A DNA stretch of 63,923 bases, counting the filler, from an uncultured Methanosarcinales archaeon (GTDB taxonomy: Archaea > Nanobdellota > Nanobdellia > Woesearchaeales > CAZKBD01): NCBI GenBank assembly GCA_964550945.1. It is 4 parts of 4 records of this genome, joined end to end, with 100 filler letters (N's around TTAATTAATTAA, not from the genome) between each part and the next. Parts side by side here need not be neighbours in the genome. Positions count along the whole stretch, not along the records: positions 36,694 to 54,788 come from CAZKBD010000033.1; 3 more parts are not named here. The stretch is one strand, 5' to 3'. The position numbers and the translations under genes are program-made. A model generated the notes under the pieces. The model saw nothing but the letters and a program-made list of their open reading frames with translations. It did no database searches and was not told the origin of the DNA. Shown here in pieces: positions 18,313-63,747 of the stretch (position 1 is its first letter; the number at the start of each line of letters is the position of its first letter).

Positions 18313-18412
18313 NNNNNNNNNNNNNNNNNNNNNNNNNNNNNNNNNNNNNNNNNNNNTTAATTAATTAANNNNNNNNNNNNNNNNNNNNNNNNNNNNNNNN
18401 NNNNNNNNNNNN
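18313..18412. other. Assembly gap with artificial linker
   Basis: N-run containing TTAATTAATTAA (stops in all frames). Confidence 0.98.
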
Positions 18413-36593: not shown

Positions 36594-36693
36594 NNNNNNN
36601 NNNNNNNNNNNNNNNNNNNNNNNNNNNNNNNNNNNNNTTAATTAATTAANNNNNNNNNNNNNNNNNNNNNNNNNNNNNNNNNNNNNNNNNNNN
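36594..36693. other. Assembly gap with artificial linker
   Basis: N-run with TTAATTAATTAA. Confidence 0.98.
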
Positions 36694-50103: not shown

Positions 50104-50253
50104 ACATCTCGCTTTTTTGATATCTAAATCACCTAAAAAGTGTTTCAACTATCAAATTATAAGTTCTGTCCATTAGCACTGGACATTCACGCGTAGCGCT
50201 TATAAATAGAACCCATTTACATAGTTACAACCAATAAAAGTTTGGTGATTTAA

Positions 50254-50931
50254 ATGATATCAAAAAATTTGGCAAGATGTGTAGCTAAAATAAGTGGAGA
50301 CGGATATTTATATTATAGGTATATCCGCTATAATAACACCTCTAAAGAGCTGTTGGACGAATTCGAGGAGGATATAAAAAAGGAGTTTGGCGACATAAAA
50401 ATAACTAAAGGGATAACAAATACAGGAACTCCATTTCGTCAAGTTCATGGCAAAAGGATAATAACCAAATTTTTAGAATACCTACCTGACTATAGAAGTG
50501 ATTTCATCTGGGTTCCAGATCAAATAAAAGAAAGTACAGACAGTGTTAAACAAGAGTATTTGAGGGCATTATACGACGACGAAGGGTCACCTAGTCTAAG
50601 GTTATTCAATAAAACCAAAGAATGGAAAAGAAACTTAAATCTAACTTCAAACTCAACCAGGCTACTTAAAGATGTAAAAGAGATATTGTCGAATAGTTTT
50701 AGTATCAAAAGCAGTAAGATTTTCAAAAACAAAAATAATGACCATTGTTATGTCCTGAGTATAACCGGCAAAGATAATTTTGTAAGATTTAAGAGGAATG
50801 TGGGGTTTAAGATCCCTCGCAAAAAGGAAAGATTAAACCTAATAATCAAAAGTTATGGAAATACTTTTTCTAGAAATAGAGGAGGATTTAGTAAAATAAA
50901 AGAAAAATTGGACTTAATTTCCCGTTCCTAA
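50254..50931 (+). CDS. Free-standing LAGLIDADG (DOD) homing endonuclease-like protein
   Basis: Two LAGLIDADG-like helices (ARCVAKISGDG; YLRALYDDEGS); no intein splicing residues; own TATA upstream. Confidence 0.85.
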   Translation: MISKNLARCVAKISGDGYLYYRYIRYNNTSKELLDEFEEDIKKEFGDIKITKGITNTGTPFRQVHGKRIITKFLEYLPDYRSDFIWVPDQIKESTDSVKQEYLRALYDDEGSPSLRLFNKTKEWKRNLNLTSNSTRLLKDVKEILSNSFSIKSSKIFKNKNNDHCYVLSITGKDNFVRFKRNVGFKIPRKKERLNLIIKSYGNTFSRNRGGFSKIKEKLDLISRS

Positions 50932-50941
50932 AATAAAAAGG

Positions 50942-51078
50942 TGGACAGCTTTCCTGATTTCCCGCGTAATGCAGTACACTCAAGAACGGAGGCTTGCTTA
51001 ACTATCACGTGGGTTAAGTCCAAACCCCAATCCGTGTTCGAAAAGGGAACGGGTGAACCAAGCCCCTATGACCGTCCA
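50942..51078 (-). rRNA. rrf: 5S rRNA with a 27-nt intervening sequence (51004-51030)
   Basis: Minus strand reads TGGACGGTCATAGGGGCTTGGTTCACCCGTTCCCTTTTCGAACACGGA[insert]AGTTAAGCAAGCCTCCG...GTACTGC...GCGGGAAATC...GCTGTCCA, matching the archaeal 5S pattern (GGUCAUAG, CCCG..CGAAC.CGGAAGUUAAG, GUACUG). Termini pair; TATA-like TTTTTAAATA just upstream. Confidence 0.9.
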
Positions 51079-51195
51079 ATGCCTAGAAATGGGGTTTTAT
51101 TTAAAAAGATTTCTTTTTTTTAGTGGATTGGTCAGTTAATGTCTCCCTTACATAAAATCGAAAGTAATTTATACTTTGTTTTACAGTAAAAACTT

Positions 51196-54788: not shown

Positions 54789-54888
54789 NNNNNNNNNNNN
54801 NNNNNNNNNNNNNNNNNNNNNNNNNNNNNNNNTTAATTAATTAANNNNNNNNNNNNNNNNNNNNNNNNNNNNNNNNNNNNNNNNNNNN
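54789..54888. other. Assembly gap with artificial linker
   Basis: N-run with TTAATTAATTAA. Confidence 0.98.
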
Positions 54889-60711: not shown

Positions 60712-62640
60712 CTATTTGAGATTGCTTTCCTTATACTCCTCATAATCCATAACCTCAACATTCCATACATAAGAAATCTCTTCAATGCCATCTGTAACAA
60801 CAACTTCAACTTTTTTATTTCCTAAAGCAGTAAACGTCCTTGCATGTTTTGCAGTGGCCTCAAATTTCTCAAACAGGCCAAAATTCCACAAATAGGTTAA
60901 TTCATCATTATCAGGATCCTCTGCATCAATCAAGAACAAAACAGGATTGTCCTTAAAAACAATAATATTCTGCGAAGGGCTGGCATTAACTATCTCAGGC
61001 TTCCTGTTCACATTGTAAACAGTTATATTAGCATATTGTGTAACATTATTCTGGCCGTCACTTGCCATAAATCCAAATGATAGGGTTTTATTTCCTTCTA
61101 TGCTGCTAACTACATCAAAGCTGGGTTTCCAAATAAACAATCCATTTTCAATAATAGCGTCAAAAGGAACACTAATTCCGGAATAGGCAACATCATCCCC
61201 ATCAGGATCCACAGCTTCAAGCTTAACTTTTACCTCCTCACCTTCTTTAGCCCAAGTTGCAGGAATTGCTTTAAAAATAGGAGCTCTATTAACATCCAGA
61301 ATCACAATTTTAACCTCCTTTTGCGTCTCCAATCTGCCATCAGAAGCAATAACTGTAACGCTATATTCTCCGCTATCATCATAATTTGTTAGATACTTGT
61401 TGCTGTCCATAAATCCCCTATACTTTATTGAACCATCATCCCCATCAGGATCATCCGATTTAGCTCCAACATTTATTTCTTCTCCTTCATTAACTGTTAT
61501 AGTATCAGGAGATTCTATCACAGGAGCCCTGTTTACATCATAAACCGTAATCTTAACATCTCTCTCAATCTCAACATCATTGCTTTTTGCTTTAAATTTA
61601 ATCAAAAAACTTTTTCCTAGGATACTGAACTTGTCCATAACTGTATCCATAAAATCCTCTTTTTTAACAGTATCATAGTTAGTCTGCCAGCTGAAAACAT
61701 TTCCCTGGCGATTAGCTCCTTCAGGCATATTCTCTGCGCTAAATGTAATAGCATCATTGTCAGGATCAGTTGCATTCAGGTAGATAACCACTTTTTGGCC
61801 CTCTTGCATAGCAGCATTAGCTATCTTCTGGAAATGCAAAGGCCTGTCTTTCTTTTTTACCGCTATCTTAATATCTCTTGAATCTTCAAATCCTTCGCCT
61901 TTTACACTAACTTTGGCATAATAAACTCCATTATCACCATAATCGGTCTGCCAATGATTATCTTGGTTCAATGGTTCTGATAGGGTATAGCTTAGCCCAT
62001 ATACGCTGAAATCAGGCAATTCTAATCTGGCAACCTCAGTCTCAAAAACCTCAACATCCTTTATCTGGCCTAAAATAGAAGACATATCCACATCATTTAC
62101 ATCAACATCCCATTCCTGAGAGATTGAAAGCTCTCCATCACTTATTATAACTTTTATTTTATGCAAGCCAGCATATTCATAGTTTGGCTTGTAAACAAAA
62201 GAGATTCCTTCTCCAACGCTCTTATCATCAACCTTCCATGTATAACTTAAACTATCCTTATTTGGGTCTTCAGCAGCAATATTAAGCTCCAGGCTTTTTC
62301 CTTCATCAACCTCTAATTCGCTGTCCGCTGGGCTAAAACTATTGATTACTGGCCCAACCTCCTTCTTGTTGATCGCAAGTGTAACATCCTGGGAGCTTGA
62401 AAGCTCTCCATCAGAAACAGTGACTGTAATTTTATACTCGCCAGCATCACCATACTTTGTCTGCCACTTTCCATCAGCATCTAAAGGTGGACTGTAGCTG
62501 TAAACAAGCCTGTCAGCATCTAAATCTGTTGCCGTCGGTTTTAAACTGACAAGATCAGTCTCATTATATTCAAGCCTGACAGCTTCAGCTAAGTAAACAT
62601 TGGCGATTACTATCAGTAGTAATAAAATCCCTCTCTTCAT
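60712..62640 (-). CDS. Secreted/surface protein with tandem Ig-like (cadherin/PKD-like) repeats
   Basis: Signal peptide; repeated AxDPDxDxLxY...WQTxYxDAGxY...VSDG...V.VxNVNRxP units. Confidence 0.85.
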   Translation of the reverse strand: MKRGILLLLIVIANVYLAEAVRLEYNETDLVSLKPTATDLDADRLVYSYSPPLDADGKWQTKYGDAGEYKITVTVSDGELSSSQDVTLAINKKEVGPVINSFSPADSELEVDEGKSLELNIAAEDPNKDSLSYTWKVDDKSVGEGISFVYKPNYEYAGLHKIKVIISDGELSISQEWDVDVNDVDMSSILGQIKDVEVFETEVARLELPDFSVYGLSYTLSEPLNQDNHWQTDYGDNGVYYAKVSVKGEGFEDSRDIKIAVKKKDRPLHFQKIANAAMQEGQKVVIYLNATDPDNDAITFSAENMPEGANRQGNVFSWQTNYDTVKKEDFMDTVMDKFSILGKSFLIKFKAKSNDVEIERDVKITVYDVNRAPVIESPDTITVNEGEEINVGAKSDDPDGDDGSIKYRGFMDSNKYLTNYDDSGEYSVTVIASDGRLETQKEVKIVILDVNRAPIFKAIPATWAKEGEEVKVKLEAVDPDGDDVAYSGISVPFDAIIENGLFIWKPSFDVVSSIEGNKTLSFGFMASDGQNNVTQYANITVYNVNRKPEIVNASPSQNIIVFKDNPVLFLIDAEDPDNDELTYLWNFGLFEKFEATAKHARTFTALGNKKVEVVVTDGIEEISYVWNVEVMDYEEYKESNLK

Positions 62641-62661: not shown

Positions 62662-63747
62662 TTAACCTTTAGTGATATCAGCAATTACAGGAGCTCTGTT
62701 GACATTCTCTACAATAACCTTGACATCCTGGCTGACTCCCTCAGTTCCATCGCTGGCTGTAACCTTGATATCATACTCGCCAGCATCATCATATGTTGTA
62801 TCCCAAACCCCATCATCACCAACCGGATCGCTTATTGTGGAAGTTATTGCATCTCCATCTGGGTCAGTTGCCTGAGGGCTAATTTTTACTGTCTCTCCTT
62901 CTTTTACAGTAATATCCTCTATCTTGGCTAATTCAGGTTTTCTGTTGACATTTTCAACGCTGATTGACCATAGTTGTGTTGTTGTTAAAGCGCTGTCTGA
63001 GATATCAAGTTTGACAGTGTGTGATCCAGCATCATCATAAGTGCTTTTATAAGCAAAAGAGTCTGTGCTTGAAACATCAGTTCCATCATACTTCCAGGCA
63101 TAAGTCAAAGGATCGCTGTTTAAATCGCTTGCGCTGACTTTGAAATCTACAGGATCAGTCTCCTTGATTTTTATTGCTGTTGTATCTGGGCTGAATGAGT
63201 CAATCTTAGGCGCTTCATCTTTCTTATTCACTATCAATAAGACATCCTTTGTGCTTGAAAGCTCTCCATCAGAAACAGTGACTGTGATTGTGTACTCGCC
63301 AGCATCACCATACTTTGTCTGCCACTTTCCATCAGCACCTAACGGTGAAGTGTAGGTATAAGCTAATTTATCAGCATCTGGGTCAGAAGCCTTTGGGACC
63401 AAGTTGACCAGATCAGTCTCGCTTGCAATGATTACAATAGCCTTTCCTTCTTGAGCTTCTGCTGCATTTTCCACAACTTCAGTTTCTGTTTTCTCTTCTG
63501 TAACTTCTGTTTTTTCCTCTGTTGCAGGCTCATTGATTGGCGTAGTTTCATTAGCTTCAGGAACTTGTTCAACAATCTCTATTGAAGGCAATGTGTCATT
63601 TGCTTTTTCCTCAATAGGAACATCTCCCAATGATACATAACTTACGTCTTCTCCACCATAGAGATCCTTAATATATTGGCACCCGCCAAAAAGAATAACA
63701 ACTACTAATACCCCTAATAATCTAGCTAAAAACCTCTTTGTAACCAT
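62662..63747 (-). CDS. Lipoprotein with tandem Ig-like repeats
   Basis: Lipobox-like LFGGC, E/T-rich linker, same repeat unit as the neighbouring gene. Confidence 0.85.
   Translation of the reverse strand: MVTKRFLARLLGVLVVVILFGGCQYIKDLYGGEDVSYVSLGDVPIEEKANDTLPSIEIVEQVPEANETTPINEPATEEKTEVTEEKTETEVVENAAEAQEGKAIVIIASETDLVNLVPKASDPDADKLAYTYTSPLGADGKWQTKYGDAGEYTITVTVSDGELSSTKDVLLIVNKKDEAPKIDSFSPDTTAIKIKETDPVDFKVSASDLNSDPLTYAWKYDGTDVSSTDSFAYKSTYDDAGSHTVKLDISDSALTTTQLWSISVENVNRKPELAKIEDITVKEGETVKISPQATDPDGDAITSTISDPVGDDGVWDTTYDDAGEYDIKVTASDGTEGVSQDVKVIVENVNRAPVIADITKG

Follow-up and report, generated by a model that had tools for sequence, protein, structure and literature searches.

A putative protein-spliced intron in the only detected 5S rRNA gene of a Woesearchaeales archaeon and a converging LAGLIDADG endonuclease gene that may spread it

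Introduction

Is the 27-nt insert that splits the only 5S rRNA gene detected in this genome removed from the RNA, or does it stay in the mature molecule? The window, by which we mean the whole 63,923-nt stretch of DNA analyzed, consists of four contigs joined by N-containing spacers at 18313-18412, 36594-36693 and 54789-54888; the 5S gene lies inside C33. The window also contains a direct repeat of 114 nt with 91% identity (62384-62497 and 63242-63355).

Stepanov and Fox (2021) described 89 expanded 5S rRNAs, the archaeal ones only in Halobacteriales, and warned that untested 5S insertions might be excised (PMC7812874, in part). The words "splic", "Woesearch" and "DPANN" do not occur in the main text of that paper, and the accessible parts of PMC12918454, PMC7714728, PMC4090602 and PMC8172020 mention no 5S intron. 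Our literature search, which covered few subscription papers, found no report of a 5S rRNA intron or of permuted Asgard 5S genes. A preliminary description of the locus proposed an intron spliced by EndA and took known 5S insertions, such as that of Halococcus, to be retained expansions; it omitted position 52/53 as a known bacterial expansion site (PMC7812874, in part). Because expansions are retained at this very site in bacteria, retention has to be weighed against removal here. We compare the two readings below, along with a neighboring nuclease gene.

The interrupted 5S rRNA gene

The insert interrupts the conserved helix III bulge of 5S rRNA, between what we take to be A52 and A53 in E. 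coli numbering (Table 1). Its sequence and BHB geometry are as first described. Exon CACG (positions 47-50) pairs with CGTG in the insert tail (51009-51006) to form a central helix of 4 bp, the 3-nt bulges are GA^T and AT^A, and a stem of four pairs, TGGG/CCCA, lies on the intron side (51029-51026 with 51013-51010). The exon-side helix, which had been called weak, shows an A46.G54 opposition and then two pairs, which involve exon bases that hardly vary. It does not adjoin the 3′ bulge as in a strict hBHBh′ motif, and the insert fits the relaxed HBh′ class only. A perfect central helix arose in 0.6% of 200,000 shuffles of the insert and the helix together with a four-pair stem in 0.02%; as the insert sequences are related, these shuffle figures are not probabilities.

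Table 1. Features predicted at the 5S rRNA locus, in window coordinates
Feature	Position	Strand	Evidence
5S rRNA gene	50940..51079	-	RF00001 match; contig C33
5S 5′ exon, 49 nt, to A52, with CACG at 51036-51033	51031..51079	-	RF00001, sequence
Putative BHB (HBh′-type) intron, 27 nt, at 52/53	51004..51030	-	motif, covariation, deletion test
5S 3′ exon, 64 nt, from A53	50940..51003	-	RF00001 match
TATA-like box, 19-26 nt upstream of 5S	51098..51105	-	read from sequence
T-rich run after 5S, overlapping the stop codon of the converging ORF	50930..50939	-	read from sequence
Free-standing two-motif LAGLIDADG endonuclease gene, 225 aa, intact	50254..50931	+	PF14528, E 3e-13; predicted structure; alignment
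Upstream element of the nuclease gene, CACTGGACA-containing motif and TATA-like box	50171..50207	+	sequence, repeat search

The standard cuts had been said to restore the 5S consensus. When 49 deletions were tried against a profile of 30 relatives that have no intron, the one at the motif cuts scored highest (94.4 bits, with 92.5 for the next best and 77.6 for the unspliced gene). The predicted spliced product is 113 nt long by Rfam bounds, or 110 nt by the bounds used in the preliminary description. The unspliced gene scores 35.2 bits with RF00001, which is less than the 38-bit cut-off, and a standard Rfam scan therefore misses it; as had been anticipated for annotation pipelines, the default scan of the window reports no 5S.

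The TATA-like box upstream would give the 5S gene a promoter of its own, and the T-rich run that follows is likely its terminator. The 16S and 23S genes sit on a different contig.

An even sample of the order had a 5S match in 139 of 151 genomes (the unpublished G127 counts among those without an intron). Eight of the 139 matches, that of the window genome included, are 136-148 nt long. Five relatives with no match were searched again with laxer filters, which returned one weak match only (E 7.2).

These searches bear on whether the interrupted copy could be silent or dead, with an uninterrupted 5S missing from the assembly. The genome (1.97 Mb) is 92.5% complete in 177 contigs, leaving room for such a gene, and loop C of the copy in hand has one unusual base, T at position 39, where A is common. 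However, a genome-wide search for a second, uninterrupted 5S found none, the gene in Table 1 being the sole RF00001 match at E <= 10. Its exons retain every helix, a promoter-like box and T-run are present, and the long 5S is the only match in each of the eight insert-bearing genomes. We find a silent copy scarcely credible.

Covariation among 5S inserts

Pattern scans used fixed exon motifs only, with a gap of 9-39 bases and no constraint on the insert itself; genome contigs yielded 91 loci and metagenome contigs 68. After exclusions, and with relatives from the genome searches included, there were 67 distinct rows: 58 archaeal-type inserts, four bacterial-type inserts that were kept separate as controls, four false matches and one duplication. 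Left out before counting were matches with a gap starting AGT (for the most part ordinary genes in which a later motif had been matched), the non-5S or normal genes L047, L097, L119 and L181, and an apparent internal duplication, L158. By exon sequence, eleven of the 58 archaeal-type inserts fall into a group with a Heimdallarchaeota-titled record.

The preliminary description had suggested looking for inserts at the same 5S site with a covarying motif. Four Watson-Crick pairs join the tail to exon 47-50 at the 52/53 register in 49 of the 58 inserts; the other nine fit a register one base upstream (51/52), seven perfectly and two with three of four pairs, and none is left over. The 49 were chosen by this pairing, and their 100% central-helix pairing is by construction. 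Five helix combinations occur among them (CACG/CGTG in 22, CTCG/CGAG in 18, CACA/TGTG in six, CCCG/CGGG in two and CTCA/TGAG in one). Permuting the partners gave a mean of 17.3 perfect helices and a maximum of 33 in 100,000 trials, a contrast that is inflated by kinship, and sliding the partner strand gave 0. A single intron interior was found with both the CACG/CGTG and the CTCG/CGAG helix. The intron stem beside the motif, which was not used for selection, is 95.3% paired with two-sided changes at six of six pairs (46 distinct rows); its first four pairs are complete in 46 of the 49, and the 3′ bulge starts with A in all 49. Kinship inflates all of these covariation results.

Inserts in loop C (40/41) of three further genomes have the same geometry, two of them with a wobble pair. 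The bacterial-type controls at 52/53 (n=4) form at most two of four pairs in three registers.

Several other 5S genes with inserts were seen. L034 (G002:C6:11151-11317) has two putative introns, at 40/41 and 52/53, whereas in L202 and L203 only the one in loop C is present. The bacterial-type 5S genes of L100 and 15 related loci, L151, L155 and L177 carry hairpin inserts of 15-18 nt at 52/53 with no splice motif; these inserts are candidates for retained expansion segments.

Could the archaeal-type insert also be retained, as a hairpin that projects from the helix III bulge of mature 5S? The site is among the least obstructed in 5S rRNA, and Thermoanaerobacterium retains a 46-nt insertion there (PMC7812874, in part). 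In our folding models the expansion structure lies 1.4 kcal/mol below the forced motif. A retained segment, however, gains nothing by pairing with exon 47-50 in competition with helix III, yet this pairing covaries. An expansion folds on itself and leaves the core undisturbed, but in the relatives the tail stays complementary to core 47-50, and bacterial-type inserts at 52/53 do without exon-tail pairing. The geometry also recurs in loop C, where the nearby positions 42-43 are blocked by uL5 in bacteria (PMC7812874, in part). A retained expansion therefore appears very unlikely to us.

In a tree of exons only (86 rows), interrupted genes are scattered among uninterrupted ones. Resolution is lacking at 40 of its 82 inner branches, and we therefore do not draw a count of independent intron gains.

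Splicing machinery and folding of the precursor

We found one EndA gene (214 aa, L131:1144-1788, on C4 of the window genome, G000), whose best PDB match is 3iey_A; tblastn detected no second EndA subunit in this genome. In the predicted protein, Phe replaces the M. jannaschii Tyr of the KYGADF motif, as in 3iey_A, and there is a 40-residue N-terminal extension. The genome also contains rtcB, of which only the 3′ part is assembled, at a contig end. Relaxed motifs are described as being cut well only by (alpha-beta)2 and epsilon2 EndA enzymes (PMC5829648, in part). This poses a problem for splicing, as the motif here is relaxed and only one EndA gene was detected.

A genome-wide pattern found seven T-loop tRNA introns with the same register, and D-loop tRNA introns were seen by eye. 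Inserts interrupt the majority of the tRNA genes (for example on C5, C6, C31, C37, C42, C71, C86, C88 and C162 of G000), in many cases in the T loop (59/60) or D loop, and some genes have several or very long inserts; ARAGORN finds only 12 tRNA genes in the genome.

Thermodynamic folding of the whole precursor does not favor the motif. The motif pairs have a probability near 0.001 in the whole unspliced RNA, the median probability of the central helix is 0.085 over 48 genes, and whole-molecule energies are -47.7 kcal/mol for the free minimum, -44.1 for the expansion model and -42.7 with the motif forced. The 51-nt junction alone adopts the motif pairs (z = -0.29). The sequence of the intron tail is similar to that of the 5′ helix III strand, and an origin as a local copy could thus explain part of its match to the exon.

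In the established structure of mature 5S rRNA, exon 48-50 pairs with 32-34 in helix III. Since mature helix III needs exon 48-50, a conserved pairing of these bases with the insert describes a precursor, which argues for removal. We propose that exon 47-50 of the precursor would pair with the intron tail instead of 31-34, that EndA would cut at GA^T and AT^A, and that RtcB would join the exons into the 113-nt 5S, with helix III forming afterwards. Three runs of the same sequencing study, probably of DNA, had no contig that covers the locus and speak neither for nor against this scheme.

Excision may also happen with no ligation, leaving a two-piece 5S held by base pairs. Excision of intervening sequences is known to leave some rRNAs in fragments (a case mentioned in PMC7812874, in part), and the incomplete assembly of rtcB fits this reading. 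It is nevertheless highly improbable, as the cuts restore the consensus to the base and the many tRNA introns of the genome require ligation.

We are highly confident that the 27 nt represent a protein-spliced archaeal intron in the only detected 5S gene. The comparative evidence (covariation, the fixed 2+1 register, negative bacterial controls, and EndA with RtcB) argues strongly for the EndA type. The single copy of the gene adds to the support for the intron as first proposed, a proposal that was incomplete in missing the LAGLIDADG gene next to it.

The converging LAGLIDADG endonuclease gene

The nuclease ORF converges on the 5S gene tail-to-tail, with 8 nt between its stop codon and the 5S 3′ end. 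The 225-aa protein has the two motifs, catalytic acids and fold of a LAGLIDADG endonuclease, and 92 further relatives were found in the protein collection. In an alignment of 83 sequences, D16 is conserved in all 83 and E110 in 82. The structure model (pLDDT 96.8) matches I-DmoI, PI-PfuI and I-Tsp061I in Foldseek (E about 1e-9 to 1e-8); the fold search thus found matches where the nuclease profile found none among PDB sequences.

The motif in the element upstream of the gene is 16 nt long with the core CACTGGACAT. Counting this one, the genome has 13 copies of the motif, each a short and constant distance ahead of a TATA-like box; the other 12 are on C2, C3, C4, C5, C7, C13, C40 (twice), C46, C53, C99 and C104 of G000. 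In other genomes, too, the core is found ahead of most of the related nuclease genes, and the motif looks like a shared operator or promoter element. A sigma-70 promoter scan was set aside as unsuited to archaea. About 100-125 nt upstream of the nuclease gene (window 50144-50267) are repeated with 86-90% identity before other genes (C53:12454-12579, C99:247-341 and C5 near 22900 in G000), and one copy directly follows a tRNA-like 5′ half.

Linkage of the nuclease to the intron

In a profile search, three of 401 genomes of the order scored above 300 bits for the nuclease family, and the next best scored 113 (the genomes with no member include the unpublished G269 and G402). These three belong to three different families of the order, and in all of them the gene lies tail-to-tail with an intron-bearing 5S. 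Among 28 genomes chosen for a 5S intron, 13 have the family, always adjoining the 5S and in one case with stops; its absence from the other 15 would fit either loss following fixation or a looser linkage. None of 34 intron-less 5S loci has a member. When 5S flanks of equal length (90 nt) were compared, the nuclease was found at 18 of 56 intron-bearing genes versus 0 of 30 intron-less genes. A Fisher test against 131 intron-less genomes was set aside because kin are not independent.

A class-wide search (401 genomes) added two members, both abutting an intron-less 5S with one extra base at the same bulge. The family thus occurs in 16 distinct genomes, in each at the 5S 3′ end, 14 with the intron and two with the extra base. 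Extra-base alleles at the helix III bulge were found at L319, L320 (G734, G804), L318 and L322, two beside the nuclease and two not. When 16 of 21 family relatives were parsed, G839 and G779 carried the extra base with no nuclease gene, and four nuclease-less congeners had the consensus. The extra-base alleles could be resistant, or they could be scars left where an intron was lost.

No nuclease relative was confirmed on viral contigs. A CPR-titled record (L129 / L296) has an archaeal-type intron-bearing 5S, identical to that of L067, together with the nuclease gene, and the contig is probably mis-binned.

A putative homing cassette

On the far side of the nuclease gene, L289-L293 contain the 5S 3′ half a second time, with its start at about A52-55 and a spacing of about 0.95-1 kb; in L299 this copy is decayed, and L261 and L294 retain short remnants. 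Because these displaced halves start at the intron site, it appears that the intron, a new 3′ half and the nuclease gene were inserted there together, which points to a homing cassette in several relatives. The nuclease would cut an intron-less 5S allele at or near 52/53, and during repair a cassette some 0.95-1 kb long would be copied in, consisting of the intron, a new 3′ half and the antisense nuclease gene. The original 3′ half would end up farther downstream and decay there, and the intron would make the host allele resistant to the nuclease. By analogy with the relatives, the 3′ exon in the window would be a replacement 3′ half that came with the nuclease gene. Three findings count against homing: 15 of 28 intron-bearing genomes lack the nuclease, two family members flank intron-less 5S genes, and a displaced 3′ half was sought in the window and none was found.

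The intron may be real and the nuclease a passenger with no relation to it, one that settles at 5S 3′ ends without targeting the intron site. This would account for the 15 intron-bearing genomes with no nuclease, for the two members beside intron-less 5S genes and for the extra bulge base in G839 and G779, and co-occurrence can arise by shared descent. We think it possible but rather doubtful: the displaced 3′ halves begin at the intron site, the adjacent 5S allele is altered at the bulge in 16 of 16 cases, the family is rare and patchy across three different families of the order, and the catalytic acids are conserved. Given splicing, the nuclease probably spreads the intron by homing.

Permuted 5S genes in Asgard archaea

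In the class of the Heimdallarchaeota-titled genome (G155), only 13 of 83 genomes have an RF00001 match. Eleven permuted 5S copies, with the 3′ half first, were parsed at L221, L226, L240, L242, L244, L246, L249, L250, L252 (two in tandem) and L253. The break is at 52/53 in four copies and at 53/54 in seven. Three or four pairs form in the matching helix when the best of three registers is chosen. The permuted genes support the helix III bulge as a processing site.

Discussion

Archaeal 16S and 23S rRNAs contain BHB introns, some of which encode LAGLIDADG endonucleases such as I-DmoI and I-Tsp061I. The locus described here likewise has an rRNA host, the same splicing motif and a structurally similar two-motif LAGLIDADG protein, but its nuclease gene is outside the intron, antisense and beyond the 3′ end of the RNA gene. 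The tRNA BHB introns at non-canonical positions (HBh′/hBH; EndA and RtcB) share the exon-intron helix of 4 bp and the two 3-nt bulges, as well as a short hairpin intron and a relaxed outer helix (definitions in PMC4090602 and PMC5829648, in part). Unlike in these introns, the host is 5S rRNA and the helix competes with mature helix III. Compared with 5S expansion segments, the insertion at the 52/53 bulge and its being overlooked by annotation are alike, whereas our inserts pair with the exon in the register of a splice motif (PMC7812874, in part).

In collaborative homing of phages, a free-standing endonuclease lies beside an intron that lacks one (PMC2988022 and PMC10448857, in part). As in those systems, the nuclease gene adjoins the gene that is interrupted, the site of cutting would be protected by the intron, and the two are inherited jointly; the linkage expected from this is what we found (the intron in 14 of 16 family genomes, extra-base alleles in the other two). 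Differences from the phage systems are that the gene is a chromosomal archaeal rRNA gene, that the intron is protein-spliced and 22-32 nt long rather than a group I ribozyme, and that a LAGLIDADG enzyme, with cleavage as yet a prediction, is combined with a replacement 3′ half of the gene. What we describe is very probably a known splicing motif in a new host RNA with an unusual mobility arrangement. The explanation as a whole, a spliced 5S intron likely spread through homing by the converging LAGLIDADG gene, we consider very likely from the comparative sequence evidence.

More broadly, we lean toward the view that 5S rRNA is spliced in parts of the DPANN and the Asgard archaea, and that the tRNA-splicing machinery generally enters at the helix III bulge, through mini-introns as well as permuted genes. 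In Woesearchaeales, the intron, replacement 3′ half and antisense LAGLIDADG gene would make up a selfish cassette in which the intron is the nuclease immunity element.

If this is true, 5S rRNA would join the RNAs that are spliced by archaea. The seeming absence of 5S from some archaeal genomes would be explained, as with the gene in the window, which falls below the Rfam cut-off. A nuclease acting in trans would provide a concrete route for the spread of tiny non-coding BHB introns, which bears on the origin of archaeal tRNA and rRNA mini-introns. The locus would also offer a natural substrate of 140 nt on which to learn what an EndA of the DPANN, for which one subunit was detected, does with a relaxed motif, and it would supply a family of nucleases that is new and whose target has been predicted.
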